Assembly (NCBI GenBank): GCA_043788365.1
Contig: JAYVTZ010000001.1
Location: forward strand, 7,800 to 71,799
DNA: 64,000 nucleotides
Source: Burkholderiaceae bacterium
GTDB lineage: Bacteria; Patescibacteriota; Saccharimonadia; Saccharimonadales; AQU-01
Direction of reading: 5' to 3'
A program made the translations under genes and the position numbers. The notes beneath the pieces are model-generated. The model had not been told where the DNA came from and ran no database searches. It saw nothing but the letters and a program-made list of their open reading frames with translations. How positions within the stretch are numbered: position 1 is the stretch's first letter; each line of letters opens with the position of its first letter. Below are positions 3,697 to 54,743 of this stretch, piece after piece.

Positions 3697-4614
3697 ATGC
3701 CGCTAACCATTGAAGAAATTCGTAACAACTGTCGTTTAGCCCGTGCCGCCATGGAGCGAGCCCGAACCGAACATTTTGCTCTCGGTGCCTTTAATCTCGA
3801 TAACCAAGAGACTTTAATTGCCGTTGTCAGGGCCGCCAAGGCCAAAAACGCACCGGTACTAGTTGAAGTCAGTAAGGGTGAAGTCGATGCGCTTGGGCTT
3901 GATAACGTCCGCGACCTAGTCGATAACTATAAGCGTGACATTGGGGTTGAAATGTACATTAATCTCGACCATTCACCATCTGTTGAGGACGCCAAAGCTG
4001 GTATTGACGCCGGTTTTGAGTTCATTCATATCGATATTTCCCAATCAAATCATGATGCCAGCGAAGACGAGATTATTGCCAAAACTAAAGAGATAGTTGA
4101 GTATGCCAAAAAGACCGGTGCGCTAGTCGAGAGCGAGCCACACTATTTTGGCGGCGGTTCTAACGTTTTCACCGAAGCTTTTGATTATGAAGAGATCCGC
4201 AAAACCTTCAGCACTCCAGAAGGCGCCAAGCACTTTGTTGACGCTAGCGGCGTCGATACTTACGCAGCCGCTATTGGTAACTTGCACGGTAGTTACCCAG
4301 TACCGAAAGTTCTCGATCTTGAATTATTGCAAAGAGTTCGTGATGCGATCGACTGTAACATTAGTCTGCACGGTGGTAGCGATACCCCGGGCAATTACTT
4401 CGTAGAAGCTGTAAAAATCGGCGTTACCAAGGTGAATATTAACTCAGATATGCGTAAAGCCTACCGCACGACCCTCGAAAAGGAACTGCGCGACAACCCG
4501 ACCGAATATGCTGTCATTAAACTGATGGACAAAGTAATTGCTGAGGTCCAAGCCGTGGTTGAAAGCAAGATCGACATGTTTAACTCTAGCGGTAAAGCTA
4601 AAGTTAGTGGCTAG
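3697..4614 (+). CDS. fba: class II fructose-bisphosphate aldolase family protein
   Basis: Motifs NLDHS and HGGSDTP. AGGAG lies upstream of ATG 3697. The track ORF start at 3673 lies inside tkt and was not used. Confidence 0.88.
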   Translation: MPLTIEEIRNNCRLARAAMERARTEHFALGAFNLDNQETLIAVVRAAKAKNAPVLVEVSKGEVDALGLDNVRDLVDNYKRDIGVEMYINLDHSPSVEDAKAGIDAGFEFIHIDISQSNHDASEDEIIAKTKEIVEYAKKTGALVESEPHYFGGGSNVFTEAFDYEEIRKTFSTPEGAKHFVDASGVDTYAAAIGNLHGSYPVPKVLDLELLQRVRDAIDCNISLHGGSDTPGNYFVEAVKIGVTKVNINSDMRKAYRTTLEKELRDNPTEYAVIKLMDKVIAEVQAVVESKIDMFNSSGKAKVSG

Positions 4615-4691
4615 TTTCTAGTAACTCGTATAAGACATCGAGCTCAAAGAACTTTTATACTAGAAACGAGCTACCAGTAATGAGATACTAT
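4611..4691. repeat. heptamer-array inverted pair in the fba-pfkB spacer
   Basis: Reverse arm CTAGTTT CTAGTAA CTCGTAT (4611-4631) includes the fba TAG stop. Forward arm ATACTAG AAACGAG CTACCAG TAATGAG ATACTAT (4657-4691). Confidence 0.8.
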
Positions 4692-4761: not shown

Positions 4762-5772
4762 ATGAGCGAACATGGTCAGTTAGACGTACTAGCAATCGGC
4801 GATGTTGTTACCGATGCTTTTGTAAAGTTGCTGGATGACCGTGCCACGACTTATGAAAACGATGAGGGTAAATGGTTGGCAATGCCGTTTGGCACCAAGA
4901 TTCCGTTTGATCACGCCACAATTATTGAAGGCGTTGGTAATGCCGCTAACGCGGCAGTTAGTTTCGCTCGTCTTGGCTTAAAAAGTGGTTTGATTTCAAA
5001 CGTTGGCGCCGATTCGCAAGGCAGAGACATTATTGCCGCCCTGCATAAAAAGGAAGTTGATCCGCGCTTTGTCCATATAAACCCTGGCAAAATCAGCAAC
5101 TATCACTATGTGCTTTGGTATAAAGAAGAACGCACAATACTTATCAAGCATGAAGAATACGACTACCAGTGGCCGCGTTTTCGACCGATTGATATTCCAA
5201 AATGGGTCTACTTTAGCTCAATTAGTAAAAACTCGCTCGACACTTACCATGACCACGTTGCCGAATGGCTTGAAGACAACCCAGAGATTAAATTAGCGTT
5301 TCAGCCCGGAACTTTCCAGCTAGAAGCCGGAGCTGACAGATTAAAGGCGCTCTATCAACGGACTGAAGTTTTAGTCGTCAACCGTGAAGAAGCTGTCAAA
5401 GTTTGTGGCGGCAACTACGATGACTTACACGATTTGCTTAACAAGCTGCACGACCTTGGTCCAAAAGTGGTCGTTATCACCGACGGCCCAGCCGGTGCTT
5501 ACGCCAGTGATGGCGAAAATCGTTTCAAAATGCCATCATATCCCGATCCAGCACCACCATTTGAACGCACAGGCGCTGGCGATGCTTTTGCTAGTACTTT
5601 TGTTGCAGCGCTAATGAAAGGTAAAAGCCTCGAGGAAGCTATGCGTTGGGGGCCAATTAACTCGATGAGCGTGGTTCAGCAAGTTGGTGCCCAAAATGGA
5701 CTCTTAACAGATGAAGATTTAGAAGATCTACTTGCAAAAGCACCTGATTGGTATCACCCAGAACGTTTTTAG
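4762..5772 (+). CDS. PfkB-family carbohydrate kinase (substrate unknown; possibly the cluster's phosphofructokinase)
   Basis: 336 aa. C-terminal TGAGDAF motif of ribokinase/PfkB kinases. G-rich SD upstream. Confidence 0.82.
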   Translation: MSEHGQLDVLAIGDVVTDAFVKLLDDRATTYENDEGKWLAMPFGTKIPFDHATIIEGVGNAANAAVSFARLGLKSGLISNVGADSQGRDIIAALHKKEVDPRFVHINPGKISNYHYVLWYKEERTILIKHEEYDYQWPRFRPIDIPKWVYFSSISKNSLDTYHDHVAEWLEDNPEIKLAFQPGTFQLEAGADRLKALYQRTEVLVVNREEAVKVCGGNYDDLHDLLNKLHDLGPKVVVITDGPAGAYASDGENRFKMPSYPDPAPPFERTGAGDAFASTFVAALMKGKSLEEAMRWGPINSMSVVQQVGAQNGLLTDEDLEDLLAKAPDWYHPERF

Positions 5773-5861
5773 TATCTAGTTTCTGGTAACTTGTTGTTCG
5801 TATAAACCGTTCGTGCAGGCGGCCTAGTACTAGATACTAGGAACGAGCTACTAGATACTGG
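5770..5861. repeat. heptamer-array inverted pair downstream of the pfkB-family kinase
   Basis: Reverse arm at 5776-5803 (CTAGTTT CTGGTAA CTTGTTG TTCGTAT) follows the TAG stop. Forward arm at 5821-5861 (..TACTAG ATACTAG GAACGAG CTACTAG ATACTGG). Confidence 0.8.
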
Positions 5862-5887
5862 GGAGCCTATTCCCAAATAGGCTCCCC
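5860..5887. other. perfect 12-bp stem / 4-nt loop hairpin
   Basis: GGGGAGCCTATT-CCCA-AATAGGCTCCCC, with no flanking T-tract on either strand. Confidence 0.7.
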
Positions 5888-5925
5888 AGATGTTATGCTT
5901 ATGGTAATAGAGTGGGGAAATTCTA

Positions 5926-8712: not shown

Positions 8713-10683
8713 ATGAATAAGTTTGAACTTAGGAGTGATTATAAGCCAACCGGCGACCAGCCGTCGGCCATTGCTCAATTGACTAAGGGCCTGGTCGACG
8801 ATGTTAAGGAGCAGACACTTCTCGGTGTGACGGGCTCAGGCAAGACATTTACGATGGCTAATATTATTCAGAACGTTCAAAAGCCGACGTTGATTCTTAG
8901 CCACAACAAAACATTAGCAGCTCAGCTCTACGGCGAGTTTAAGAAGTTTTTCCCGAATAACGCTGTGCATTATTTTGTTAGTTACTTTGATTACTACCAG
9001 CCAGAGGCTTACATTGCTCGGTCGGATACTTATATCGAGAAAGATTCACAGATTAATGAGGAGATTGACCGTCTGCGCCACGCCGCGACAGATGCACTGC
9101 TATCCCGCAAGGACGTCATAATTGTTGCCAGTGTCAGTTGTATTTATGGTATTGGTTCGGTTGAGGACTATGACGGTTTGGCGATTGAGGTCGTTAAGGG
9201 CGAACGTAGAGTACGTGATAAGTTCCTGCGTCAATTAACAGACATTCAATATCAGCGTAACGATATTGACTTCCACCGTGGCACATTTAGGGTTCATGGC
9301 GATGTCGTTGACATTTTCCCGGCTGGTGAAGAGTTGGCTTATCGGATAGAGTTCTTTGGTGATGACGTGGAGCGGATTACTAAGGTTGATCCGTTAACTG
9401 GCGAAATTCTCGAAAAGCTTGACAGTTTTAAAATTTTTCCGAGTTCGCACTACGTCACACCATTTGAGAAGTTGAAGGGCGCTTTGGTCAATATCGAAGA
9501 AGAGCTAAAAGACCGGTTGGCGTTATTCAAAAAGAATGGTCAGTTACTTGAAGCCCAGCGCCTAGAACAAAGAACCCGCTTTGACGTTGAAATGCTCGAA
9601 GAGACCGGCTTCGTTAAAGGTATCGAGAACTACAGTCGCTACCTAACCAACCGTGAGCCAGGCGAACAACCAGCCACGCTACTCGACTATTTTCCAGATG
9701 ATTTTCTGATGTTTATCGACGAGTCGCACATGACGATACCGCAAGTTCGGGGCATGTATAACGGCGACCGCGCCCGTAAAGAAGTGCTTGTCGATTATGG
9801 CTTCCGTTTACCTAGCGCATTAGATAACCGGCCACTAACATTTACTGAATTCGAGAAGCACATAAATAAAGTCGTTTACGTTAGTGCCACACCAGCCCAA
9901 TATGAGCTTAGCCGTAGTCCAGAGCCTGCCCAGCAAGTTATTCGCCCGACAGGGCTTCTTGATCCAGTTATTGAGTTAAGACCAATTGAGGGTCAGATAG
10001 ATGACTTGATTGCTGAGATTCGCAAGACCGTTGCCAAGCGACAGCGCGTACTTATAACGACTCTTACGAAGCGCATGTCTGAGGATTTGACTGAATATCT
10101 CAAAGAAATAAATATTAAAGTAACTTATTTGCATAGTGACGTCGAGACTTTGGAGCGCACCGACATATTAAGAGATTTAAGACTTGGTATTTACGATGTT
10201 GTGGTCGGTATTAACTTACTACGCGAAGGTCTAGATTTGCCAGAAGTTAGCCTAGTGGCGATTTTGGATGCGGACAAAGAAGGTTTCTTAAGAAGCGAAC
10301 AAGCTCTAATTCAAACTATTGGTCGGGCCGCCCGTCATGAAGAAGGCCGTGTCTTAATGTATGCCGACCACATCACCGGTAGTATGCAACGAGCCATGGA
10401 TGAAACGACTCGTCGCCGCAAGATTCAGGAAGACTACAACACCGCTCACCATCAGAGCCCGGTCGGCATCACGCGCTCAATTGAAAAGGGTATGAGGCCG
10501 GAGCTAACCGAAGAGGCAAAATCAGTTAAATTGAATCTGAATAAGATTCCAAAAGACGAATACAAACACATTATTAAAGACCTGACAGGTCAGATGGATA
10601 TCGCTGCCCTAAACTTGCAATTCGAAACCGCCGCCGAACTGCGCGACATGATCACTGATATCAAAAAACGCCTCGAAAAGTAG
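8713..10683 (+). CDS. uvrB: excinuclease ABC subunit B
   Basis: 656 aa. Walker [17 protein letters not shown] motif, C-terminal UVR domain (FETAAELRD). Confidence 0.97.
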
Positions 10684-14389: not shown

Positions 14390-15289
14390 ATGAACAACAA
14401 ACCCGTTAGAAAAGCAGTTATCGCCGCCGCCGGTTTTGGCACCAGATTTTTACCCCAGACCAAAGCGATGCCAAAAGAAATGTTACCGCTAGTCGATAAG
14501 CCAGTAATTCAATACGTTGTTGAAGAGCTCGTTTCAGTCGGCATTGAAGACATAATAATTGTGACCAACTCAACTAAGCGTAGTATCGAGGATCACTTTG
14601 ACCGCCCACCAGCTGACCTAATTAGTAACTTAAAAGAAGGTGGTCCGAGCAAAGCCCATTATATAGAGGAAATTAAGGCCATTGGTGATATGGCTAACTT
14701 TATCTACGTTCGTCAGAAAGGTCCGTATGGTAATGGCACGCCACTACTTAACGTTGCTCACCTGATTGGTGACGAGCCGTTTATCTACACCTGGAGTGAT
14801 GATTTTATCGTGGCTTCACCGGCTAGGTTTCAGCAAATGATTGATGTTTATAAAGAGTACAACGCAACTGTAATGGGTGCGGTAAAAGCTAAGACAGATG
14901 AAGATTATGGTCGTTATGGCTTTGCAGCGGGTAACGAATTACGTAGTGGCATTATTGACGTGCAACGAATTGCTGAAAAGCCAGGCAAAGAAAATGCCCC
15001 ATCTGATTTAGCTACAGTTAGTGGCTGTTTATTCATGCCAGAAATCTTTAGTTACCTAGAGAAGGCGTTAATGGATTTGAAGCCTGACCATGAGCTCTAT
15101 TATAACGACGGTATTCAGTTGATGATAAACGACGGGCATCGCGTTATAGCGGCTGAAATTCAGAATGGTAAATATTATGATGCTGGCAGTAAGCTGGAAT
15201 ATCTGAAAACAGTTGTCGACTTTGCCCTTAAACATGATGATATCAAAGATGAGTTTAAGCAGTATCTAAAGGAAACTATTACTGACTAG
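14390..15289 (+). CDS. galU: UTP--glucose-1-phosphate uridylyltransferase
   Basis: AAGFGTRFLPQTKAMPKEMLPLVDKP N-terminal signature. Confidence 0.93.
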   Translation: MNNKPVRKAVIAAAGFGTRFLPQTKAMPKEMLPLVDKPVIQYVVEELVSVGIEDIIIVTNSTKRSIEDHFDRPPADLISNLKEGGPSKAHYIEEIKAIGDMANFIYVRQKGPYGNGTPLLNVAHLIGDEPFIYTWSDDFIVASPARFQQMIDVYKEYNATVMGAVKAKTDEDYGRYGFAAGNELRSGIIDVQRIAEKPGKENAPSDLATVSGCLFMPEIFSYLEKALMDLKPDHELYYNDGIQLMINDGHRVIAAEIQNGKYYDAGSKLEYLKTVVDFALKHDDIKDEFKQYLKETITD

Positions 15290-15328
15290 TATTTAGTTTT
15301 TAGATTGTACTGTATAATTGAGATATCT

Positions 15329-21436: not shown

Positions 21437-21598
21437 ACAGTATCTCGTATCTAGTCTCTCGTTACTAGTAGCTAGGCAATTAATGTATGTCGTATATAGT
21501 TTCTCGTATTTCGTATAATGGCAAATCAACAGTGCATAAACCAGTTAGGTGAAGCTTGTCTCTATACTAGAAACTAGTTACTAGCTACAAGATACTAA
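21437..21598. repeat. heptamer-array repeat cluster in the divergent trmH/pilB intergenic region
   Basis: Units on the reverse strand at 21437-21478 and 21489-21516. Units on the forward strand at 21564-21598 (ATACTAG AAACTAG TTACTAG CTACAAG ATACTAA). Confidence 0.8.
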
Positions 21599-23295: not shown

Positions 23296-23817
23296 ATGCA
23301 AAATCTGATTCAGGCAGTAGATGCCAAGTACAAAAAACATGCCGTCGTCGACGTTAAGTCAGGTGACACAGTTAAAGTTCATCAAAAAATTAAAGAAGGC
23401 GCCAAAGAGCGTGTTCAGATTTTTGAAGGTCTGGTTATACGTGCTTCACGCAAGGATAGCCTGACTAGTACAATTGCGGTTCGCAAGATTGCCAGTGGTG
23501 TTGGTGTTGAGAAAACCTTCCTATTACATAGCCCAAATGTTCTTAAAATTGAAGTAACCAAGCGTAGTAAAGTCCGTCGTAATTACTTAAGCTATATGCG
23601 CAAACTTACCGGTAAGAACGCCCGACTTTCTAGCGTTGATTTTGATAAACGTGGTGTTAACGATATCCATGATGCTGCCGCTGAAGCCGAAGAAGTCAAA
23701 CTACACGAAGAAGTTGAAGCCGCCGCTAAGGCTGAAGTTGAAGCTAAGGCTGCCGAAAAAGCCGCTGAAGACGCCAGGGCTGAAGCTATTATTGCTGCTC
23801 GCGAAAAAGCCGAATAG
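23296..23817 (+). CDS. rplS: 50S ribosomal protein L19 with Ala/Glu/Lys-rich C-terminal extension
   Basis: Core GDTVKVHQKIKEG...ERVQIFEGLVI. 173 aa versus a usual length of about 115. Confidence 0.93.
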   Translation: MQNLIQAVDAKYKKHAVVDVKSGDTVKVHQKIKEGAKERVQIFEGLVIRASRKDSLTSTIAVRKIASGVGVEKTFLLHSPNVLKIEVTKRSKVRRNYLSYMRKLTGKNARLSSVDFDKRGVNDIHDAAAEAEEVKLHEEVEAAAKAEVEAKAAEKAAEDARAEAIIAAREKAE

Positions 23818-23986
23818 TATCTAGTTACTAGTAGCTAGACACCGGTATAAAACACTAATATTTTACCTAACCGTCTTATACGAGCTACTAGAAACAAGCC
23901 ACTAAATGCTCTTACGTGAATAAATTATGAATTTAGCAGTCATTATACTAGCTACTAACTTCTAGATACGAGATACTAGTAACATG
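23815..23986. repeat. heptamer-array composite repeat filling the rplS-rnhB spacer
   Basis: Reverse-oriented units at 23821-23841. Forward units at 23878-23905 and 23945-23986, the last being TAACATG, which contains the rnhB start. Palindromic core at 23921-23935. Confidence 0.8.
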
Positions 23987-29164: not shown

Positions 29165-29191
29165 CTAGCACTCTTGCACTCCGAGTGCTAA
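29165..29191. promoter_or_regulatory. CIRCE element (HrcA operator) upstream of clpC
   Basis: CTAGCACTC-N9-GAGTGCTAA versus consensus TTAGCACTC-N9-GAGTGCTAA. Confidence 0.85.
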
Positions 29192-29203
29192 GTTTGCTAT
29201 TAT
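29174..29203 (+). promoter_or_regulatory. candidate clpC promoter TTGCAC-N18-TATTAT overlapping CIRCE
   Basis: -35 at 29174-29179 lies in the CIRCE spacer. -10 at 29198-29203. Confidence 0.45.
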
Positions 29204-29242
29204 TTAAGAAGGCCGTAAAAGCAACTAAATATTGTATGGCCA

Positions 29243-29277
29243 ATACTAGCAACTAGTAACGAGGTACTAAATACTAT
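29243..29277 (+). repeat. heptamer array abutting the clpC start codon
   Basis: ATACTAG CAACTAG TAACGAG GTACTAA ATACTAT, then T ATG. Confidence 0.8.
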
Positions 29278-31832: not shown

Positions 31833-32801
31833 ATGAATTCGCATAAAAGCAGAAATGGTCTGATTGTATCGATGTTGTTGCTGTTATCTGTATCCTTCGC
31901 CTGGTATCAGCGCCAATATATTTACGACTGGTCGAGGCTACGTAACTATAGCGTAAGTATTGGTATGAGTGAGTTAGCAACCGCCACAACTATGAACGCT
32001 AAGGCACGTAATATTTTTTATGTTCAACACCCCGAGCTCGACAATAAAGTCGTCTTTGATGGTAAGTGTGATGTTGGCGAACAGACGATTGTGCTTGGTT
32101 GTTACATTAGTAAAAAGGGTATTTTTGTTTATGATGTAACAGACGCCAGGCTAGCTGGTGTTAAAGAAGTTACCTCGGCTCACGAGATGCTACATGTTGC
32201 CTATGACCGGTTGAGCCAAAAAGACCGAATAGCCGTCGATTCGATGGTCGAGAATGCCTACTCTAAACTCAATGATACCCGTATAAAAGACACAGTTGAG
32301 CAATATAAAAAGAACAAAGCCGATGTTAAGGATGAATTACATTCGATTCTAGGCACAGAGGTCAGAACCTTGCCAGCTGACCTAGAGAGTTACTATAAAA
32401 AATATTTTGATAATAGGCTTGTAGTTGTTAGTTTTTCAGAGAAGTATGAAAGTGTATTCACGGATAGAAAAAATAAAGTCGAACAGTTCGACCAGCAACT
32501 TAACTCTCTGAAAGTAAGAATTGATTCATCGCAAGCCGATCTAGCGTCGCAGATAATTACAGTTGACCAAAAGCGTGAGCAACTTGACGCCGAGCTAGCC
32601 GCCAGTCGTTATGATCTATATAACGCCGGGGTTGCACCATTTAATAGTCTAGTTAAGTCCTATAACAATAAAATCGCTAGCACAAGGGGCTTAATTGACC
32701 AGTATAATCAGACTCTCGATCAGCGAAATGCAATAGCCCTAGAAGAGCAAGAGCTTTACAAGGCCATCGATAGTCGACTGACAACACAAACCGCTAAATA
32801 G
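31833..32801 (+). CDS. membrane-anchored hypothetical protein with HExxH motif and coiled-coil C-terminus
   Basis: 322 aa. N-terminal TM helix. SAHEMLHVAY. Confidence 0.8.
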   Translation: MNSHKSRNGLIVSMLLLLSVSFAWYQRQYIYDWSRLRNYSVSIGMSELATATTMNAKARNIFYVQHPELDNKVVFDGKCDVGEQTIVLGCYISKKGIFVYDVTDARLAGVKEVTSAHEMLHVAYDRLSQKDRIAVDSMVENAYSKLNDTRIKDTVEQYKKNKADVKDELHSILGTEVRTLPADLESYYKKYFDNRLVVVSFSEKYESVFTDRKNKVEQFDQQLNSLKVRIDSSQADLASQIITVDQKREQLDAELAASRYDLYNAGVAPFNSLVKSYNNKIASTRGLIDQYNQTLDQRNAIALEEQELYKAIDSRLTTQTAK

Positions 32802-32945
32802 TATTTAGTAGCTAGTATAAAAATAGGTAAATTCATAATTAATTCACCTTTTGTATCTAGTACCCCTGTTTCTCGTATTTTGTATTAAGACATGAGAGAA
32901 TACGCAGATTATTTCAATCCCTTATCTCCGAATACTAAGTACTAC
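32798..32945. repeat. heptamer-array composite repeat downstream of 31833..32801
   Basis: Starts at the TAG stop. 32805-32891 is homologous, in inverted orientation, to 23873-23958. Confidence 0.75.
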
Positions 32946-32996
32946 TTTAGATGACAATTGTTCGACGTTTTTACCGTCAGAGGTTAAACTAGGGGT

Positions 32997-40685: not shown

Positions 40686-42719
40686 ATGACACTAGATTCG
40701 ATTGTAGTTGAAATTAATGGAATTGGTCCAGCCTTGGCCGAAAAGTTCAAGTCGGTTGGCATCACTACGATTTCTGACCTAGTCGATTATTACCCACGCC
40801 GTTATGACGATTATTCACATATCGAGACAATTTCCGCCATTCAACCTGGTGTCGTAACAATTCGGGCAGTTATCAAACAGGTCCGTGGTCGCTATGTTAA
40901 GCGCGGATTGCATATTACTGAAGCTGCGGCCAGCGACGAAACCGGTAGCGTTAGATTGGTTTGGTTTAATCAGCCTTATCGGGCAAATGCCATCAAGCCG
41001 GAAACTGAGTATTTTATTTCTGGTCAGTTTGAGCTAAAGTCTGGTCGACTGGCAATCATGAACGCTTCAATGGAGCTGGCTAGTGATTTCCCGGTCAGTA
41101 CGGCGCGGATAGTACCGATTTACCGCGAGACCAAGAATATTAAGTCGTTGCAAATTCGTCGGGCGCTGCGCGAAGTTGGCCCGCTGATTAGTAAATTGAC
41201 TGAAACTTTGCCGACTTGGCTTATTAAAGAGCAAAAACTGATGAGTAAAAGCGAGGCGATTATGGCGATTCACTTCCCGCGTGATGCTGACCATTTGGCA
41301 TTGGCCCAACGACGGCTGGGTTTTGAAGAAGTCTTCGAACTAACTCTGGCAAGTTTGCTAAATAAGTATGAATTACTCCAGGAACACGCTCTGTCGATTC
41401 CATTCAAACAAGAATTAGCTAAGCAATTCGTGTCACACCTTCCATTTAAGTTAACTGATGCTCAACGAGTCGTAATCTGGCAAACTTACCAAGACCTAGA
41501 AAAAACTCAACCGATGAATCGACTAATTGAAGGTGACGTCGGTTCTGGTAAAACTGTTGTGGCGACGATGGCGGCATTAATGGCGCTCGAGCAAGGCTAT
41601 CAAGTCGCATTAATGGCTCCAACTGAACTACTGGCTAGGCAGCATGCCGAAACAATCTACAAATTACTTGAACCCCTAGGTTATGCCGACCAAGTTGGTT
41701 TGCTAGTCGGTAGCCTAAAACCAGCCCAAAAGAAAATAGCTCAAGACAAGATTGCCAGTGGCGAAATTCGGCTGATGATCGGCACTCATGCCCTGATTCA
41801 AGAAAAAGTTGATATGCATAAACTTGGACTGATTATTGTTGATGAGCAGCATCGTTTTGGTGTCGAACATCGCAAGAAGCTCCAAGCCAAGGCTGGTCAC
41901 GCACTGCACGTGCTTAGTATGACGGCGACACCTATACCACGCAGCTTGGCGTTGACACTGTATGGTGAAATGGATATCTCAATAATAGATACTAAGCCAG
42001 TTGGACGAAAGACTATCATCACCAAGATTACTTCCCCAAATTCTCGCCCTGCTTTGTATGAAAAGATTGATAAGGAGTTAGAAGCTGGGCGTCAAATGTT
42101 TGTCGTGACACCATTAATTACCGATTCTGAAGTAGTTGTAGCAGCATCGGCAGAGAAGGTTTACGCAGATATGAAACTAGCTTTTGCTAATCGCCGCGTA
42201 GGGCTCATGCACGGCAAGCTAAAGTCAGACGATAAGAATGCGGTCATGGAGCAGTTTGTTAGCGGCGAGCTGGATATACTGGTGTCAACGACAGTGATTG
42301 AGGTTGGTGTCGATGTGCCGAACGCGACTGTTATGCTGATCGAGAATGCTGAACGTTTTGGTCTTGCTCAAGTACACCAGTTGCGTGGGCGGGTTGGTCG
42401 TAGTGATTATCAAGGCTATTGTTATCTGATGATGGGTGATTCGTCGGCGCCAAGTCGCCGACTTTTGGCACTTGAAAGCTCATCAGATGGTTTTGCATTG
42501 GCTGAACTAGATTTGCAGATTCGTGGTCCAGGGGCAATTTATGGCACGATGCAACACGGTCAGCTTGACCTCAGGATTGCCAAACTAACAGATATAAAAT
42601 TGATTGCCAGCGCCAGAAGTTCAGCCCAAAGGTTTATCGATGAAGGTGAAAATCTGTTACAATATGGTCATCTGGCTCAACGAGTTCAACACTTACGAGC
42701 AGTCACAAACCTAAACTAG
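40686..42719 (+). CDS. recG: ATP-dependent DNA helicase RecG
   Basis: 677 aa. Wedge domain, GDVGSGKT, DEQHRFG. Confidence 0.96.
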   Translation: MTLDSIVVEINGIGPALAEKFKSVGITTISDLVDYYPRRYDDYSHIETISAIQPGVVTIRAVIKQVRGRYVKRGLHITEAAASDETGSVRLVWFNQPYRANAIKPETEYFISGQFELKSGRLAIMNASMELASDFPVSTARIVPIYRETKNIKSLQIRRALREVGPLISKLTETLPTWLIKEQKLMSKSEAIMAIHFPRDADHLALAQRRLGFEEVFELTLASLLNKYELLQEHALSIPFKQELAKQFVSHLPFKLTDAQRVVIWQTYQDLEKTQPMNRLIEGDVGSGKTVVATMAALMALEQGYQVALMAPTELLARQHAETIYKLLEPLGYADQVGLLVGSLKPAQKKIAQDKIASGEIRLMIGTHALIQEKVDMHKLGLIIVDEQHRFGVEHRKKLQAKAGHALHVLSMTATPIPRSLALTLYGEMDISIIDTKPVGRKTIITKITSPNSRPALYEKIDKELEAGRQMFVVTPLITDSEVVVAASAEKVYADMKLAFANRRVGLMHGKLKSDDKNAVMEQFVSGELDILVSTTVIEVGVDVPNATVMLIENAERFGLAQVHQLRGRVGRSDYQGYCYLMMGDSSAPSRRLLALESSSDGFALAELDLQIRGPGAIYGTMQHGQLDLRIAKLTDIKLIASARSSAQRFIDEGENLLQYGHLAQRVQHLRAVTNLN

Positions 42720-42746: not shown

Positions 42747-42790
42747 TGGCTAGAAAAACTAGTCACTAGAAACTAACTACTAGATACTAT
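42747..42790 (+). repeat. heptamer array abutting the start of 42795..43676
   Basis: TGGCTAG aa AAACTAG TCACTAG AAACTAA CTACTAG ATACTAT, then aaaa ATG. Confidence 0.8.
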
Positions 42791-44545: not shown

Positions 44546-44630
44546 GCGGATGTGGTGGAATTGGTAGACACGCTAGCCTTAGGAGCTAGTGTCGCAAGAC
44601 GTGAAGGTTCAAGTCCTTTCATCCGCACCA
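44546..44630 (+). tRNA. tRNA-Leu (anticodon TAG), type II with long variable arm, CCA encoded
   Basis: Hand-folded. Acceptor GCGGATG/CATCCGC. Anticodon stem CTAGC/GCTAG with loop CTTAGGA. Variable arm GTCGCAAGAC. T-arm GAAGG-TTCAAGT-CCTTT. 85 nt. Confidence 0.93.
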
Positions 44631-44637
44631 TATTTAA

Positions 44638-44660
44638 AGCCCCTCGAAAGAGGGGTTTTA
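44638..44660 (+). terminator. rho-independent terminator after tRNA-Leu
   Basis: CCCCTC-GAAA-GAGGGG followed by TTTT. Confidence 0.8.
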
Positions 44661-44749
44661 AATATGGTACAAATTAAGTCTTGAACCTTCAGACCCGCTT
44701 TAGCGGGTGAAGGTTAGCCCGCGCGAAGCCGGACGCTGTCCTTTCATCC
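44650..44749 (+). repeat. direct repeat DR1 (tRNA T-arm-derived hairpin element ending in a copy of the tRNA 3' end)
   Basis: 44654-44724 is identical (71/71) to 44997-45067. Hairpin arms at 44684-44698 and 44703-44715. The 3' block CTGTCCTTTCATCC matches the tRNA 3' end. Confidence 0.9.
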
Positions 44750-44772
44750 CCATCATCTGTTAAGCTATAGTA

Positions 44773-44994
44773 ATGAGTTACGAGTTTTTGAGTAATTTAA
44801 GCGACGATGATGCTGCGAAACTTGTAGGTAAAGTTATTAATAGACTACCACATCATCATGGCCGAATCGGATCGGCAATCATGGAAGTCTTAGAATTTTC
44901 ACCACCAGAAGGCACAGATATTAATGCATTTAATGCAAGTGTCATGGGTGATGCGCTGAGAATAATAGGAGACAGCTCAGTCCCTGAGGAATAA
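44773..44994 (+). CDS. small hypothetical protein bracketed by DR1 and DR2
   Basis: 73-aa ORF. DR2 begins 1 nt after its TAA. Confidence 0.45.
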   Translation: MSYEFLSNLSDDDAAKLVGKVINRLPHHHGRIGSAIMEVLEFSPPEGTDINAFNASVMGDALRIIGDSSVPEE

Positions 44995-45096
44995 GAGGTT
45001 TTAAATATGGTACAAATTAAGTCTTGAACCTTCAGACCCGCTTTAGCGGGTGAAGGTTAGCCCGCGCCGTATGCACGACACTGTCCTTTCATCCGC
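44995..45096 (+). repeat. direct repeat DR2
   Basis: Same 71-nt core as DR1. Variable 13-nt segment, then CTGTCCTTTCATCCGC, of which 14 nt (GTCCTTTCATCCGC) are identical to the tRNA-Leu 3' end. Confidence 0.9.
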
Positions 45097-45184
45097 TCAA
45101 ATCATTAGATTCAATTCAACGCATCTTCTTTAGTCTGACAGGTTTATGAATAATATAATCATCACTGGTAGTCGAAACAATGAA

Positions 45185-45632: not shown

Positions 45633-48600
45633 GTGCAGAGGCCAGAGGGAAAAGGTAGAATCATTACCGACTTTACTCCTGTTAAAAAAGGAGCGGGGCA
45701 GGCAGTACCAAAAATCTTGGCCAAAAGTCCTGCAAAAAAGTTGCCGTTGCGAAATAGGCTAAAGCTCCGAGCCAGAAAACAAAAGCTTAAGCTGGCTAGA
45801 CTTGCCAAGCCGTCAAAGATACCTTTGATCAGGTTCACTCCTCGCACTCTCTCAGCCGGCATAATCATCCTAACCCTACTCGGCTTAATCATAGGCAACT
45901 CCCTCTACCAATCCTCCAAATACAAAATAAACCGCACTAAAGTAGCCTTCCTATCCCATAGCTCCATAGACACAACCTTCATCAAACAAGATAGTAAAAG
46001 CTTTAGCTACGACCGTAGCGCCGAACAATCTGCAATAAGTACTAACGACAAAGGCCAAAAACAACTAACTGTAGCTAGTCCAACTGACGCTACCGGCATA
46101 GACTCATACAAGGCCACCCTACCCAAGAATCCTAAAGACGGCATAACCTTTAGTGACTCTAAAGGTACTAATAGCTTTAACCTAAAACCACTAGACAAAG
46201 CTGTTAATTCATCTCTGCTTGGTGGTCGCCTAGATAGTGGCAATATAGTCTATCCAAGTAGTAACAACTCTAACGAGAAACACATCTATTCCTTCAAAAA
46301 GAACGGCATTAAGGAAGATATTCTCCTAACAGCCAAACCAAGCACTAAAGAACTAAACTACGCCTATACTCTAACCCTAAACTCTGACCAAGAAGCCAGA
46401 GCCAACCCAGACGGATCAATTGGCATCTACATTGCTAACCCAAACAATACAAGCTCAAACAGCACCAACCCAAACAATACAGCTAGTCAACCTAAAGACT
46501 ACCTTGTCTACGTCCTACCTAAACCCTTCATCATAGACAGCAGAGGAGTAAAGAACTATGAGGATGTCTTCTACAAGCTAGAAGCAAGCAAACAAACAAC
46601 AACAGGCAATAGCAACCAGACGGGAAACAACGGAACGAATGGCCAAGCTGGCAGCACCTACACCCTAACCCTAGAAGCTCTAAACATGCTAAACAAGAAC
46701 TATCCTCTAAGTATTGACCCTACTATTACAGTCACAACCACAGCTGACTTTAGACAAGGCTTAGACGATGGCATGCTAGACTACACCACCACGGCTGATC
46801 AAGTGGCGAGGGCGAATGTGTCATTGGGGACAATGGGAACAGCCACAACTCAAACTGCGGCATTTACAACCAAAAGATCGTCACCAACTGCATTAGCTTA
46901 TAATGGCTACGCTTATATATTCGGTGGATCATTTCAAAGTTCGCTCATACAATCAAGCGTCTATACTGATATACAGTATTGTCCAATCAACACCAACGGA
47001 AGCCTTGGGACATGCACGACAAACTCCACAGGATTAGCTGCCGCACCTGATCCTTGGGAGTCATTTATTTATAACGGCAGTATCTATAGCATTCTCGGTT
47101 TTGGCTTTGGCATGGTGCAACGATGTATTATCAATTCTAATGCTTCCGTTAGTCCGTGCACATTTCAGACTGGTATAAGTAACCTATCAAAACAGCCTCT
47201 TTTTCTTCACGATAATTTTTTGTTTACTATTTCAGCGGGGGATGTAAACAGATGCCCGTTCAATAGCGATGGATCAATAGGAAATTGTACAACCCAAAGC
47301 GCAGTTTATAATTCGAACTGGGGCGTGGCATCAGCAGAAATATATAATACTTGGCTTTACGTCACTAGCATTGATGTTAGCGGATTTATGAGTATGATGA
47401 TTTGTCGGATTAATCCGGACGAATCGGTAAGTAACTGTACTCATTCGGTTACATCTTTGGTTGGACGATCTGGATACGGATTAGCAGCATATAGAGGATA
47501 TTTATATATAATAGGCGGTCACGATTTTTTTGCTACGTTATACGATGTGGATGAAGCGCCAATTAATGCCGACGGGTCTATCGGCAGCTTAACGACTCTA
47601 AACATACTGAACACAAAACTTTCACTGATGGGGGCATTTATTTACGATGGATATCTGCATGTTATGGGTGGTAATTTTAAAAACGGTGGAACTTTTTTTA
47701 ATACTAATGATGCGGAGTATGTACCAATTAATACTGGCACGCCAACCTTTGGTACGGTCAGCTCTGCGACGCAGCAAACAAGCGCCTTTACGACAGCGCG
47801 CTATAACCAGACTTCTGTGGTCTACGACGGCTATCTCTATATCATTGGCGGCTGTCACGATGCAGCGTCGCCGCCGTGTGATGTGTTACTGAATGACATT
47901 CAGTACTGCCCGATAAATAGCGATGGCTCGATAGGCGCCTGTACTCAGCAGACCAACGCCTTTACTACGGCTAGGGCATACCACGCAACGGCGATACTCA
48001 ACGGCTATTTATATATTGTCGGCGGGCAAACCGGCGCTTTAACTGTCACGAACGATGTTCAATATTGCCAGATCAATAACAATCACTCTGTCGGTACATG
48101 CACTCAACAGACTAACGCCTTTACGACCGCCAGAATGAGCCATGCTTCTTTTGCCTATAACGGCTATTTATATATTGTCGGCGGCCAAAGCTTTGCGCCA
48201 ACCTCTGGCTGTACGCCGGTCGATTATTGTGACGATATCCAATATTGTCCAATAAATTCTAACGGCTCAGTTGGAGCCTGTACTCAGCAAACCTCTGCCT
48301 TTACAACCGCCCGTGATTTCCTTTCTTCGCTGACGTACAACGGCTATCTCTACATTGTTGGCGGTTTTAGTAACGGTGGAGCGTTAAATGATATTCAATA
48401 CTGCCCAATCAACTCTAATGGTTCAGTTGGGGCTTGTACCCAGCAGGCAGCGGCCTTCACTACTCCAAGATACAACCTGCGGTCGGTAGCCTATAATGGC
48501 TATTTGTATATAATTGGCGGCCAAGATAACGCCAGTATCCCGTTAAGTGATTTGCATCATTGCCCCATAAATAGTAACGGCTCAATAGGTACATGTACTC

Positions 48601-49472
48601 AGGTTTTGTCAGCTTTTACGACAGCACGCTCTTCTCATACTTCAGTAGTCTACGGAGGTTACCTATATATAATTGGCGGCTATGATAACACTAGTTCTTA
48701 CAACGACATCCAATACATCCCAACCCTCACCCCAACCCAAGTCTCGCACTATGAAAGACTTATTAACCTAGGCAACGGTGGCACAGTCACTTCCTTTGTG
48801 ATTAATGGTACTGCTAAATGTGGCTACACTGTTAGCTACAAAACAGCTGACAATACAGGAGTCTTTGGTTCGTCTACTACAGTGCTTGATGTCTTCCCAG
48901 GAGTATCTCAAACAGTATCACTAACCGGTGCTACTGCCATAGCTTTCACGGTTGTACTAGATGACTCAACCTGCGGTGGTCAGTCTATAGTCACCGACCT
49001 TAGTGTTAGCTATACTCCTAGACCTAGCGCCCCAACTCTAACGGCGCCACTCAATAATGCTACTGCTGCTAGCTTAACTCCAGAACTTCGTCTTGGAGCT
49101 ATCGCCAACACCACGAACTATCTTCGTTATAAGATAGAAGTCTGTAGTACCAGCAACTGTTCCTCTATAGTTCGCACTATCGACCAAACATCAAGCCAGA
49201 CTGGCTGGCAATCTCAGTCAGAACAAAGTGGTACTGCCTACACGGGTGGGATATCGTCAATTGCTCAGTACGCTATTCACAAGTACCAAACCCCAGCACT
49301 ATCCGCCAATACACAATATTGGTGGCGAGGCTACGCCATAGACCCTAGCGGCACAAATACCTTTAGCCCAGCTTCTGCTATCTCTACCTTCACGACCAAA
49401 CAAACTACCGCCAATGTCATAAATATTGGCGGCGGCACAACTATCTATAGCGGTACGACAATAGGTAATTGA
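45633..49472 (+). CDS. 1279-aa membrane-anchored surface protein: basic N-tail, TM helix, unknown domain, two tandem six-bladed Kelch-like beta-propellers, C-terminal beta-sandwich and FN3-like domains
   Basis: GTG start. TM helix at aa 72-90. Twelve blades (aa 403-1031); the last six follow AFTTAR-x6-YNGYLYI[IV]GG-x8-18-DIQYCPINSNGS[IV]GxC. C-terminal YWWRGYAIDPSG FN3-like motif. Confidence 0.85.
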   Translation: MQRPEGKGRIITDFTPVKKGAGQAVPKILAKSPAKKLPLRNRLKLRARKQKLKLARLAKPSKIPLIRFTPRTLSAGIIILTLLGLIIGNSLYQSSKYKINRTKVAFLSHSSIDTTFIKQDSKSFSYDRSAEQSAISTNDKGQKQLTVASPTDATGIDSYKATLPKNPKDGITFSDSKGTNSFNLKPLDKAVNSSLLGGRLDSGNIVYPSSNNSNEKHIYSFKKNGIKEDILLTAKPSTKELNYAYTLTLNSDQEARANPDGSIGIYIANPNNTSSNSTNPNNTASQPKDYLVYVLPKPFIIDSRGVKNYEDVFYKLEASKQTTTGNSNQTGNNGTNGQAGSTYTLTLEALNMLNKNYPLSIDPTITVTTTADFRQGLDDGMLDYTTTADQVARANVSLGTMGTATTQTAAFTTKRSSPTALAYNGYAYIFGGSFQSSLIQSSVYTDIQYCPINTNGSLGTCTTNSTGLAAAPDPWESFIYNGSIYSILGFGFGMVQRCIINSNASVSPCTFQTGISNLSKQPLFLHDNFLFTISAGDVNRCPFNSDGSIGNCTTQSAVYNSNWGVASAEIYNTWLYVTSIDVSGFMSMMICRINPDESVSNCTHSVTSLVGRSGYGLAAYRGYLYIIGGHDFFATLYDVDEAPINADGSIGSLTTLNILNTKLSLMGAFIYDGYLHVMGGNFKNGGTFFNTNDAEYVPINTGTPTFGTVSSATQQTSAFTTARYNQTSVVYDGYLYIIGGCHDAASPPCDVLLNDIQYCPINSDGSIGACTQQTNAFTTARAYHATAILNGYLYIVGGQTGALTVTNDVQYCQINNNHSVGTCTQQTNAFTTARMSHASFAYNGYLYIVGGQSFAPTSGCTPVDYCDDIQYCPINSNGSVGACTQQTSAFTTARDFLSSLTYNGYLYIVGGFSNGGALNDIQYCPINSNGSVGACTQQAAAFTTPRYNLRSVAYNGYLYIIGGQDNASIPLSDLHHCPINSNGSIGTCTQVLSAFTTARSSHTSVVYGGYLYIIGGYDNTSSYNDIQYIPTLTPTQVSHYERLINLGNGGTVTSFVINGTAKCGYTVSYKTADNTGVFGSSTTVLDVFPGVSQTVSLTGATAIAFTVVLDDSTCGGQSIVTDLSVSYTPRPSAPTLTAPLNNATAASLTPELRLGAIANTTNYLRYKIEVCSTSNCSSIVRTIDQTSSQTGWQSQSEQSGTAYTGGISSIAQYAIHKYQTPALSANTQYWWRGYAIDPSGTNTFSPASAISTFTTKQTTANVINIGGGTTIYSGTTIGN

Positions 49473-53455: not shown

Positions 53456-53496
53456 TATTAATGCCCGTTAGGGCCGAGCGCAGGAATTGTAAAAAG

Positions 53497-53523
53497 TTAG
53501 CACTCGCACTTGACGAGTGCTAA
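53497..53523. promoter_or_regulatory. CIRCE element (HrcA operator) upstream of clpP, perfect consensus arms
   Basis: TTAGCACTC-GCACTTGAC-GAGTGCTAA. Confidence 0.9.
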
Positions 53524-53544: not shown

Positions 53545-54147
53545 ATGAGTGAATTATTACGTCGAACCAAGTCTGCCCTTATTCCAACCGTAATTGAGAC
53601 CGAAGGTCGGATGGAACGTGCCTACGATATCTACAGTCGTTTGCTGCGCGATAGGATAATTTTCCTCGGTGAAGACGTCAATGAACACACGGCTAACCTA
53701 GTCGTTGCCCAGCTATTATTTTTAGATAACGAAGCCTCTGATAAAGATATTTATCTATACATTAACAGCCCGGGTGGTAGCGTATACGATGCTCTAGCCA
53801 TCTATGACACCATGCAATACGTTAAAAGCGATATTCAGACCGTCGGCATCGGTGTTCAGGCCAGTGCCGCAGCCTTCCTACTAAGTAGCGGCGCCAAAGG
53901 CAAACGCACTATTTTGCCAAATTCGACTGTCATGATCCACCAGCCATCGAGTGGCACGCGTGGTAAGGTCACCGATATGGAAATCGACCTCAAGGAGTCA
54001 CTACGTATCAAAAAGCGACTAAATGAAATTATGGCTAAAAACACCGGTCAAACCATCAAAAAAATCGAAGTAGACATGGAACGAGACTACTGGATGACTG
54101 CCGATGAGGCCAAAAAATATGGTGTTGTTGATAAGGTAATTGGCTAA
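53545..54147 (+). CDS. clpP: ATP-dependent Clp protease proteolytic subunit
   Basis: 200 aa. Catalytic Ser region QASSAAAFLL and MIHQPS. Confidence 0.96.
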
Positions 54148-54503: not shown

Positions 54504-54743
54504 AAAGTAATTTATTAGCCCATAGCTCTTGACTCATGACTCCATACTCTGTACTCTATAAGGTAAGAAGTAGTATAAGTTAGCATGCTTGTTTGATTCT
54601 GATCAGTTAAATAAGCACCAAAAGCACTGACTTAGTAATCTTCGCGCGATAAATATATAAACAAACACGTTTTCTTATTCGAGTACTCAAAAATCTTATA
54701 AACACTAAATAGCAAATAAACTGCTCAGGAGTATTTTATTAGT

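Follow-up and report, generated by a model that had tools for sequence, protein, structure and literature searches.

Inverted arrays of a degenerate heptamer at gene boundaries of a Saccharibacteria genome: possible arms of a REP- or MITE-like intergenic family

What are the seven-nucleotide repeats occupying many of the spacers between the genes of a saccharibacterial genome? The question is raised by a 64,000-nt stretch of DNA (hereafter, the window; GenBank assembly GCA_043788365.1, contig JAYVTZ010000001.1, positions 7,800 to 71,799), for which a preliminary description, made from the letters alone, reported seven intergenic regions with arrays of phased degenerate heptamers in a reduced, Saccharibacteria-like genome. 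The latter assignment agrees with the best named protein matches, which are to Saccharibacteria. Tentatively, and at slightly less than even confidence, the arrays are interpreted here as the arms of a dispersed, lineage-specific, non-coding family of palindromic intergenic elements akin to repetitive extragenic palindromes (REP) and bacterial interspersed mosaic elements (BIME) or to miniature inverted-repeat transposable elements (MITEs), with a substructure like that of short tandemly repeated repetitive (STRR) sequences. This answer draws on how the arrays are built, oriented, and able to fold, on the fact that relatives lack them, on the resemblance of the copies to one another, and on the speed with which such spacers are exchanged in another lineage.

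Heptamer arrays and their orientation toward genes

Reading of the sequence at the coordinates named earlier revealed the phased heptamers, as quoted, in all seven regions. An exact scan of both strands for phased NNACNAG units returned eight arrays of three or four units (on the plus strand at 4657, 5827, 21564, 23878, and 29243; on the minus strand at 4611, 5776, and 21444) and five doublets. Arrays of at least three units never occurred in 200 first-order Markov simulations of the window (eight observed vs. none), and the count of doublets was 13 vs. a simulated mean of 1.6; both the enrichment and the phasing exceed chance by far. A weight matrix built from 54 units describes the consensus as a degenerate NWAC[T/G]AG with a free first position: A3 and C4 are conserved in 96%, A6 in 94%, and W2 in 91% of the units; position 5 is T in 71% and G in 19%, and G7 reaches only 71%, because the closing units usually end in T or A. 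The invariance initially described thus amounts to a conservation of ca. 95%.

At a threshold of at least 14 bits over three units, the matrix delimited 15 array regions, as compared with 0.33 positions per simulated window. Their units abut, as described before, although they number 3–6 rather than 4–6 per array; the seven loci hold, but an additional weak array at 15286–15306 had been overlooked. Each of the 15 arrays either occupies a spacer or reaches across a stop codon; not one is found well inside an open reading frame (ORF). Likewise, the density of TACTAG amounts to 5.8 per kb in non-coding DNA (4.3 kb) vs. 0.49 per kb in coding DNA, a twelvefold difference, which upholds the early remark that nothing comparable is seen inside coding sequence. 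The family makes up about a quarter of the non-coding DNA of the stretch. The part between 20.6 and 25.4 kb is base-for-base identical in two independent public assemblies (Logan contigs L001 and L002); hence, the arrays are not an assembly artefact. Neither contig displays strain polymorphism relative to the window.

Several familiar explanations were rejected. The repeats of CRISPR arrays are ca. 23–50 nt long and alternate with unique spacers of similar length, whereas the 7-nt units abut without spacers, as was rightly pointed out at the outset. A search of Rfam at E ≤ 1 returned no match in any array region (in the window, only tRNA-Leu passes), which argues against a known non-coding RNA with a covariance model and is in line with the initial failure to recognize a named family, although a close published analogue, the TAACTGA repeats (PMC4679880), does exist. 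An intrinsic terminator is not compatible with array hairpins devoid of a following T run, and the provision of stop codons in all frames was dismissed as the main function, since units of the ACGAG type carry no stop.

Half of the arrays of the window are located on the minus strand, so that each larger region is an inverted pair; the direct arrays had been noted earlier, but the minus-strand ones and their strict orientation to the flanking genes had been missed. Read in its own orientation, an array starts with the opener TTATAC[T/G]AG, continues as (NWAC[T/G]AG)n, and ends with the closer ATACTA[T/A/G]. In five of the five spacers with two arrays (4604–4691, 5770–5861, 21437–21598, 23814–23905, and 32798–32950), the minus-strand array is on the left and the plus-strand array on the right; the closers thus point outward, to the flanking genes. 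Four arrays face stops and five face starts. Four antisense closers overlap the stop codon of the upstream gene, and a fifth, weak case is found at 15287; TAGTAT begins at the stop codon at 5770, 23815, and 32799, and the stop TAG at 4612 forms part of the CTAG in an internal unit next to, and inward of, the CCACTAA closer. The sense closers are located 0–13 nt upstream of start codons, with a hexamer GATACT, AATACT, or TATACT 6–7 nt before the ATG at 23984, 42795, 29282, and 21614. About 13 further promoters of the leaderless type in the window share this geometry, as do the orthologous promoters of the syntenic relative L003. Judging from it, the sense closer would double as the −10 box of a leaderless promoter in several arrays; the sense arrays span positions −13 to −45 of the promoters whose −10 box is the closer. 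The early description was correct as to the intergenic position, but the overlap with stop codons and −10 boxes had escaped it. The arrays, designated A1–A15, and the elements that they delimit, designated E, are as follows.

4604–4634, minus strand: array A2, antisense to fba, GTCT TATACGAG TTACTAG AAACTAG CCACTAA; the fba stop TAG (4612–4614) lies inside.
4654–4691, plus strand: array A1, TTATACTAG AAACGAG CTACCAG TAATGAG ATACTAT; right arm of the ca. 88-nt palindromic element E1, 70 nt upstream of a pfkB-like gene.
5770–5806, minus strand: array A4, antisense, TTTATACGAA CAACAAG TTACCAG AAACTAG ATACTAA; the closer overlaps the stop TAG 5770–5772.
5824–5861, plus strand: array A3, GTACTAG ATACTAG GAACGAG CTACTAG ATACTGG; right arm of E2.
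15286–15306, minus strand: weak short antisense array, TAGTATTTAGTTTTTAG on the plus strand, 19.6 bits, starting at the stop TAG 15287–15289.
21437–21478, minus strand: array A6, sense for a SpoU methylase gene, CTACTAG TAACGAG AGACTAG ATACGAG ATACTGT; its closer GATACT is 13 nt upstream of the ATG and is orthologous to CATACTGTG in L003.
21483–21520, minus strand: internal, degenerate array A14, TATACGAA ATACGAG AAACTAT ATACGAC, 22.2 bits, similar to 32868–32885.
21561–21598, plus strand: array A5, sense for pilB, TATACTAG AAACTAG TTACTAG CTACAAG ATACTAA, directly upstream of a conserved TATACT −10 box and the pilB start.
23814–23848, minus strand: array A7, antisense to rplS, ATACCGG TGTCTAG CTACTAG TAACTAG ATACTAT; the closer overlaps the stop TAG 23815–23817.
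23875–23905, plus strand: array A8, GTCT TATACGAG CTACTAG AAACAAG CCACTAA; right arm of the ca. 91-nt element E4a.
23943–23986, plus strand: array A9, sense for RNase HII, TATACTAG CTACTAA CTTCTAG ATACGAG ATACTAG TAACATG; GATACT is 6 nt upstream of the RNase HII ATG.
29241–29277, plus strand: solo array A10 in the clpB leader, AATACTAG CAACTAG TAACGAG GTACTAA ATACTAT, abutting the ATG.
32798–32824, minus strand: array A11, antisense, TTATACTAG CTACTAA ATACTAT; the closer overlaps the stop TAG 32799–32801; left end of the ca. 145-nt element E6.
32852–32892, minus strand: internal, degenerate array A13, TAATACAAA ATACGAG AAACAGG GGTACTAG ATACAAA, 15.4 bits.
32928–32950, plus strand: array A15, the short right end of E6, AATACTAA GTACTAC.
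42750–42790, plus strand: solo array A12, sense for a 293-aa gene, CTAGAAA AAACTAG TCACTAG AAACTAA CTACTAG ATACTAT; GATACT is 6 nt upstream of the gene's ATG.

Some of these sites have surroundings worth recording. A near-perfect G+C-rich hairpin (GGGGAGCCTATT CCCA AATAGGCTCCCC) at 5858–5889 directly follows A3 and has no T tract on either strand. The ribosomal protein L19 encoded at 23296–23817 bears an Ala/Glu/Lys-rich C-terminal extension of ca. 60 aa (173 aa vs. 141 aa in L003), and the stop codon of the extended protein is a part of A7.

The elements E1 and E2 are 65–70 nt away from the next start, which has a Shine–Dalgarno site of its own, and A10 is located downstream of a conserved CIRCE-overlapping clpB promoter and should, therefore, be transcribed. 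The arrays are not explained by promoters only, as half of them point into gene 3′ ends; the sense arrays preceding Shine–Dalgarno sites in other lineages (see below) also exclude this reading.

The promoters of the window display features of their own. About 13 gene starts (e.g., at 8713, 14390, 31833, 37507, 39401, 45200, and 53545) have TATAAT or TATACT 6–8 nt before the ATG and no Shine–Dalgarno site; leaderless mRNAs seem to be common in this Saccharibacterium, with TATACT as a frequent −10 variant, and likewise in L003. Inverted repeats of the CIRCE type (TAGCACTC-N9-GAGTGCTAA) are present upstream of clpB (29166–29195) and of a ClpP-family gene starting at 53545 (53493–53522); both carry a −35 box in the loop, the clpB copy is conserved in L003, and the pair suggests an HrcA heat-shock regulon. 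Upstream of rpoB (54515–54565), a different run phased by 7 nt (TTGACTC ATGACTC CATACTC TGTACTC TATAAGG) resembles overlapping −35 and −10 boxes stepped by 7 nt.

Folding, copy similarity, and relatives

The elements of the window are ca. 88–165 nt long and possess inverted arms. The paired arms of one spacer form long imperfect stems, and a single arm is a direct array and not palindromic. Thus folded, E1 has a stem of 6 + 10 bp (z −1.8 on the plus and −2.6 on the minus strand), and the z values for E2 and E4a are −3.4/−3.5 and −3.6/−3.0, respectively; the ends of E6 pair with z −3.2, and the arms of E3 (A5 with A6) pair over about 30 positions.

The similarity between copies extends beyond the heptamers. 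The segment 4604–4636 (A2) is 94% identical to 23873–23905 (A8) over 33 nt, and 23916–23964 matches 32799–32847 in inverted orientation with 84% identity over 49 nt; the latter match comprises 28 nt upstream of A9 and the first units of A9 and, hence, includes a non-array centre. By these alignments, the copies concerned are related by descent. Both ends of the elements display TA (TA before GTATCTAG and after CTAGATAC), but this dinucleotide belongs to the conserved closer.

The window encodes housekeeping genes, and those flanking the arrays are functionally unrelated. For RNase HII, the best named matches are from Saccharibacteria, with the nearest relative only 61% identical. The syntenic relatives L003, L126, L127, and L128, whose RNase HII is 57–61% identical, i.e., distant, have neither an array nor a 7-nt periodicity. 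In L003, spacers are shorter than in the window (111 vs. 182, 119 vs. 166, and 57 vs. 195 nt), a canonical terminator stands at the site of the hairpin E4a, and E6 is absent; in comparison with L003, E6 looks like an insertion of ca. 145 nt between conserved flanks. While the family as such had been noticed from the outset, its absence from the nearest relatives and the occurrence of the same architecture in unrelated bacteria had not.

Pairing at longer range has also been considered: the 5′ sense array of a transcription unit would pair with the 3′ antisense array of the same unit into an mRNA panhandle, bringing the stop beside the start and protecting both ends. Three units are bracketed in this manner, namely pfkB (A1/A4), pilB–rplS (A5/A7), and clpB with the 322-aa gene (A10/A11). 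By duplex energy, A4–A1 and A7–A5 are mutual best partners, the three bracket pairs beat 75–83% of alternative pairings, which same-spacer pairs do not, and the closer AUACUA is complementary to UAGUAU, stop codon included. Across other loci, however, bracket pairs are no better than the alternatives (on average, 41% of the alternatives are weaker); moreover, arrays occur between cistrons within a ribosomal operon, compact spacers are near-perfect local palindromes, and leaderless transcripts would be deprived of the 5′ array, all of which makes a panhandle highly improbable.

Three further features of the window deserve mention. In the region 44546–45100, the tRNA-Leu gene (44546–44630) is followed by a 79-nt direct repeat (44646–44724 and 44989–45067; 96%) and by a 28-nt inverted repeat that spans the 3′ end of the tRNA; these repeats may be the attachment-site scar of an integrated element. 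An ORF of 1279 aa (45633–49472) contains at least six tandem coding repeats of ca. 159 nt (47769–48679), each ending in a Y-L-Y-I-I-G-G-like motif, and probably encodes a beta-propeller or Kelch-like surface protein. The sub-threshold Rfam match to the Yersinia small RNA Ysr141 inside recG (41483–41719, minus strand; 39 bits vs. a gathering score of 196) is almost certainly due to chance.

Recurrence and turnover in other genomes

A more specific array pattern was found at 105 metagenome loci with a G+C content from 0.24 to 0.67; 14 of these are perfect microsatellites, and 33 are accompanied, on the side of the opener, by an inverted partner no more than 350 nt away. The recurring map of a locus is gene, antisense array, centre, sense array, and next gene. 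Among the arrays within 30 nt of an ORF boundary in the window and 51 metagenome loci (n = 98), the closer is directed toward the ORF in 85 (55 antisense at stops and 30 sense at starts) and not in the other 13. The stop-facing arrays are at a median distance of 2 nt from the stop, and the start-facing ones are at a median of 11.5 nt before the start, with room for a Shine–Dalgarno site. Written in array orientation, stop-facing and start-facing arrays yield weight matrices that cannot be told apart, as would be the case if they were the two arms of a single element. When 579 ORFs of the 105 loci were clustered all against all, no gene family other than housekeeping ones recurred next to the arrays. 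A phage origin is unlikely, given that only 2 pattern matches come from viral contigs.

The start-facing arrays bring to mind leader repeats that act as single-stranded RNA, to which a protein or the ribosome (S1, a cold-shock protein, or a HutP- or TRAP-like regulator) would bind so as to tune the translation of the downstream gene. HutP and TRAP sites are characterised by (U/G)AG triplets at regular intervals in a leader competing with a terminator, together with a gene for the cognate protein. In the arrays, NAG, or (U/G)AG, recurs every 7 nt; half of the arrays are antisense, and neither a terminator/antiterminator context nor a HutP or TRAP gene was seen in the window. In many lineages, sense arrays end 0–25 nt before starts or Shine–Dalgarno sites, A10 follows the CIRCE promoter within the clpB leader, and published analogues are available (PMC4679880; the preprint on Nostoc heptamer repeats, 10.1101/2022.06.06.494920). 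Nevertheless, this explanation assigns no role to the antisense-at-stop arrays, which outnumber the sense-at-start ones (55 vs. 30); in the window, several sense arrays precede the point at which the transcripts of leaderless genes are inferred to begin, and E1 and E2 are remote from a start with its own Shine–Dalgarno site. A role as leader repeats is accordingly considered improbable. A search for RNA-specific asymmetry (substitutions tolerated by G-U pairing, sense vs. antisense arrays) gave no clear signal.

In a reference-genome scan for four ACKAG units, the matches listed include perfect heptamer microsatellites of many phyla and no Saccharibacteria. Among these matches (L006–L125), perfect tandem heptamers of the ACKAG type (CCACTAG, GGACTAG, TGACGAG, GAGACGA, and others) are far above chance and are common in Chloroflexota, Acidobacteriota, Gemmatimonadota, Planctomycetota, cyanobacteria, and some Proteobacteria.

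It could be argued, then, that the arrays are decaying heptanucleotide microsatellites, functionless and immobile products of replication slippage. Such an origin would suit the abundance of perfect ACKAG-type microsatellites in many phyla among the matches listed, as well as the statement that, of the long simple repeats of prokaryotes, those of heptamers are the most frequent (Mrazek 2007, according to the summary in PMC4679880). Neutral decay would, however, erode all seven positions equally, yet four are conserved at ca. 95%, and slippage leaves the orientation rule (85 vs. 13), the opener and closer, the inverted pairing, and the similarity outside the arrays without explanation. Slippage debris is, hence, a very unlikely account of the family.

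The turnover of the arrays can be followed in the lineage of contig L216, which does not belong to the Candidate Phyla Radiation (CPR): the RpoA encoded there shares 97% identity with its counterpart in a metagenome-assembled genome of a subsurface 'Clostridia bacterium' and 60–68% with Aerophobetes proteins. Here, a 228-nt element (L216:5748–5975), composed of arms and a conserved centre, has full-length copies, one with 87% identity at L216:408–607 and others in L139 and L222. In the spc/alpha operon of four genomes (RpoA 89–97% identical), every larger spacer is an inverted heptamer array stretching from the stop codon to the Shine–Dalgarno site. The S11–S4 spacer measures 227 nt in L216, 74 nt in L234 (RpoA 97% identical to that of L216), and 67 nt in L139 and L235; the L18–S5 spacer measures 176, 142, and 69 nt, with NATCKAG units in L234. 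All spacer variants of the operon fold, one of them with a perfect 13-bp stem (z −4.9). By this comparison, the L216 lineage conserves the layout and replaces the sequence within a very short time, which points to REP/BIME- or MITE-like elements or to gene conversion mediated by the arms, and not to a conserved operator. In addition, inverted arrays of other heptamers (GATTCAC, NATCKAG, and ATACGNN) were observed in neighbouring spacers (L216:8023–8144, L234:8286–8495, and L204:121–155); in the ACKAG-bearing lineages, the sequence of the unit varies more than do the 7-nt period and the palindromic layout.

This turnover bears on the possibility that the arrays are double-stranded DNA operators read in a 7-bp register by a polymerising omega-like protein, which would control leaderless promoters and serve as a roadblock or insulator at gene ends. 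The conservation is position-specific, as is typical of a binding site (A3, C4, and A6 at 94–96%, N1 free), the units abut, the sense arrays cover positions −13 to −45 of the closer-based promoters, and the orientation is strict; the motif is also identical in sense and antisense arrays, so its recognition would be independent of the transcribed strand. At the same time, the window ORFs scanned include no candidate DNA-binding protein, the 105 loci share no recurrent neighbouring protein family, and the flanking genes are unrelated housekeeping ones. Arrays are also present between ribosomal protein cistrons inside an operon, and orthologous spacers at 97% RpoA identity hold different arrays and even different units (NATCKAG), which is hard to reconcile with a single code. 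Operator arrays are, on balance, unlikely.

An intergenic element family and its implications

Several observations weigh against the interpretation of the arrays as arms of a mobile or converting intergenic family. The strongest objection is that ACKAG, conserved at ca. 95% while N1, W2, and K5 vary, looks like a recognition site; four positions conserved to this degree call for a binding factor or for strong homogenisation. The 42 nt before RNase HII retain a frame of six heptamers in the array-less L003 (GTACTAG ... ATACTAT TATTATG), suggesting evolution in place and not insertion. Arms that share a spacer show no greater complementarity to one another than to those of other spacers (rank 5–7 of 8 by duplex energy in the window), and, across loci, neither same-spacer nor same-transcript pairs of arrays beat alternative pairings; any minus-strand arm pairs with any plus-strand arm via the ACKAG cores, and selection for the hairpin is thus not supported by covariation. 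The centres of the elements in the window are unrelated between copies, save for the 49-nt and 33-nt matches, and three arrays are solo. No target-site duplication is demonstrable, the TA flanks being within the motif and the junctions of E6 vs. L003 being ambiguous, and Pfam scans of most window ORFs detected no transposase, RAYT, ribbon–helix–helix, HutP, or TRAP protein.

With a binding factor in mind, one may envisage the arrays as the cis half of a portable, cross-phylum system marking the ends of coding units, with either a dedicated heptad-reading factor or HUH-type enzyme, or paired arrays closing the mRNA, as its working part. In the former version, a protein binding DNA or RNA, or a hairpin-specific HUH-type enzyme, would read ACKAG in the 7-nt register on both the stop and the start sides. 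Such a system is regarded as improbable.

The closest published relatives of the family are the TAACTGA repeats, the cyanobacterial STRRs, REP/BIME, and promoter-bearing MITEs, and a defining feature of each is lacking here. The early choice of STRR or REP/BIME as the closest concepts was sound, inasmuch as the folding inverted arms, the position at cistron ends, and the rapid turnover resemble both. The period, copy number, and position are shared with the TAACTGA repeats and STRRs; the palindromic, intercistronic, fast-turnover behaviour is shared with REP/BIME and MITEs.

The TAACTGA direct repeats occur in marine Beggiatoaceae, some cyanobacteria, and Bacteroidetes (MacGregor 2015, PMC4679880). 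Their units are identical, related heptamers are rarely repeated, and 147 of 170 sets in BOGUAY are directed toward starts and 12 toward stops; it was proposed that in Beggiatoaceae they tune the translation of the next downstream gene (PMC4679880). Both families are built of abutting 7-nt units (2–6 copies per set in the TAACTGA repeats, 3–6 per array here) in many dispersed, almost wholly intergenic sets next to unrelated genes; in both, sets point at a start codon and end a few nt away from it, the taxonomic distribution is patchy, and the unit is similar (TAACTGA vs. TAACTAG). Unlike TAACTGA, the arrays studied here consist of degenerate units in which only ACKAG is fixed, have distinct openers and closers, and comprise stop-facing antisense arrays that are as common as the sense ones or commoner (55 vs. 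30) and pair with them into palindromes.

The STRRs, reportedly described by Mazel and co-workers in 1990, are tandem heptanucleotides at many dispersed non-coding loci of heterocystous cyanobacteria. Their units (CCCCAAT, TTGGTCA, and CAACAGT) usually form near-identical copies in longer arrays. The tandem heptamers dispersed over many non-coding loci are common to both families, but the unit (NWACKAG) and the host (a Saccharibacterium) differ, and STRRs are not defined by a strict orientation to gene ends.

REPs are imperfect palindromes of 20–40 nt with a 5′ GTAG, mobilised by RAYT (a Y1 transposase) in enterobacteria and pseudomonads; the RNA hairpins of REP/BIME can stabilise upstream mRNA or attenuate transcription, and their proximity to the stop codon matters. 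Akin to REP/BIME, the elements are short, non-coding, extragenic, multicopy, and hairpin-forming, occur at or between cistron ends, and share the strain variability characteristic of REP/BIME. As distinct from them, a single arm is built of heptamers and is not palindromic, only pairs of arms making a palindrome; no RAYT was found in the 64-kb window (most ORFs scanned), and, whereas BIMEs avoid the spacers of divergent genes, the arrays are found there too.

MITEs are non-coding multicopy elements of under 600 bp with terminal inverted repeats. Among them, the Correia elements of Neisseria are conserved over their whole length, have clear TA duplications, and create −10 boxes with their ends. 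The resemblance includes the size (about 90–230 nt), inverted terminal arms, intergenic position, −10 boxes at the ends, transcript hairpins, multiple copies, and presence or absence at orthologous spacers (absent in L003, L126, L127, and L128, all of them distant, and replaced in the L216 lineage). The window elements differ in that only the arms are conserved, likeness over the whole length being met only in the L216 lineage. The omega repressor of pSM19035, a ribbon–helix–helix protein, reads abutting WATCACW heptads, direct or inverted, at three plasmid promoters. Its operators are also abutting 7-bp units, direct and inverted, overlapping promoters, but with another consensus; the present arrays occupy dozens of chromosomal spacers, and no ribbon–helix–helix protein was found in the window (most ORFs scanned).

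In this reading, an element consists of a left arm of minus-strand units, a variable centre of ca. 25–90 nt, and a right arm; each arm comprises 3–6 abutting NWAC[T/G]AG units, with TTATAC[T/G]AG as the opener on its inner side and ATACTA[T/A] as the closer on its outer side, and the element fills the interval between the stop codon of the preceding gene and the promoter or start of the following one. Insertion, ectopic gene conversion between spacers, or both may generate and disperse the arms, and the 7-nt units may be gained or lost by slippage, so that all arms of a genome stay alike. In the RNA crossing the spacer or in single-stranded DNA, the arms would pair into helices of 5–10 bp interrupted at the N-W positions; if the analogy with REP/BIME holds, such a hairpin could protect or process mRNA ends or attenuate read-through. 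The outer (G)ATACTA was likely co-opted in this organism as the −10 box of leaderless promoters, its complement TAGTAT would supply the stop codon of the upstream gene, and the CTAG cores would supply stop codons where arrays clip a gene end. We propose that the elements hug coding sequences because they are tolerated only there.

The genomes of Patescibacteria/CPR are regarded as streamlined and repeat-poor. By contrast, a single repeat family here touches the stops, promoters, and starts of housekeeping genes. On the practical side, heptamer arrays break short-read assemblies and mislead the calling of start codons and promoters in leaderless organisms, and they could serve as strain markers. 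Should the improbable cross-phylum system be real after all, it would represent an undescribed layer of gene-boundary organisation common to Saccharibacteria, an Aerophobetes-like subsurface lineage, and others; if the arrays of one transcript pair, termination and initiation would be physically coupled. Overall, the family offers a sequence-defined handle on the old question of what dispersed heptanucleotide repeats (STRR, TAACTGA) do, and it adds three testable cross-phylum regularities: the closer faces the coding sequence, the arms are inverted and fold, and the content of the spacer is replaced with its layout kept.

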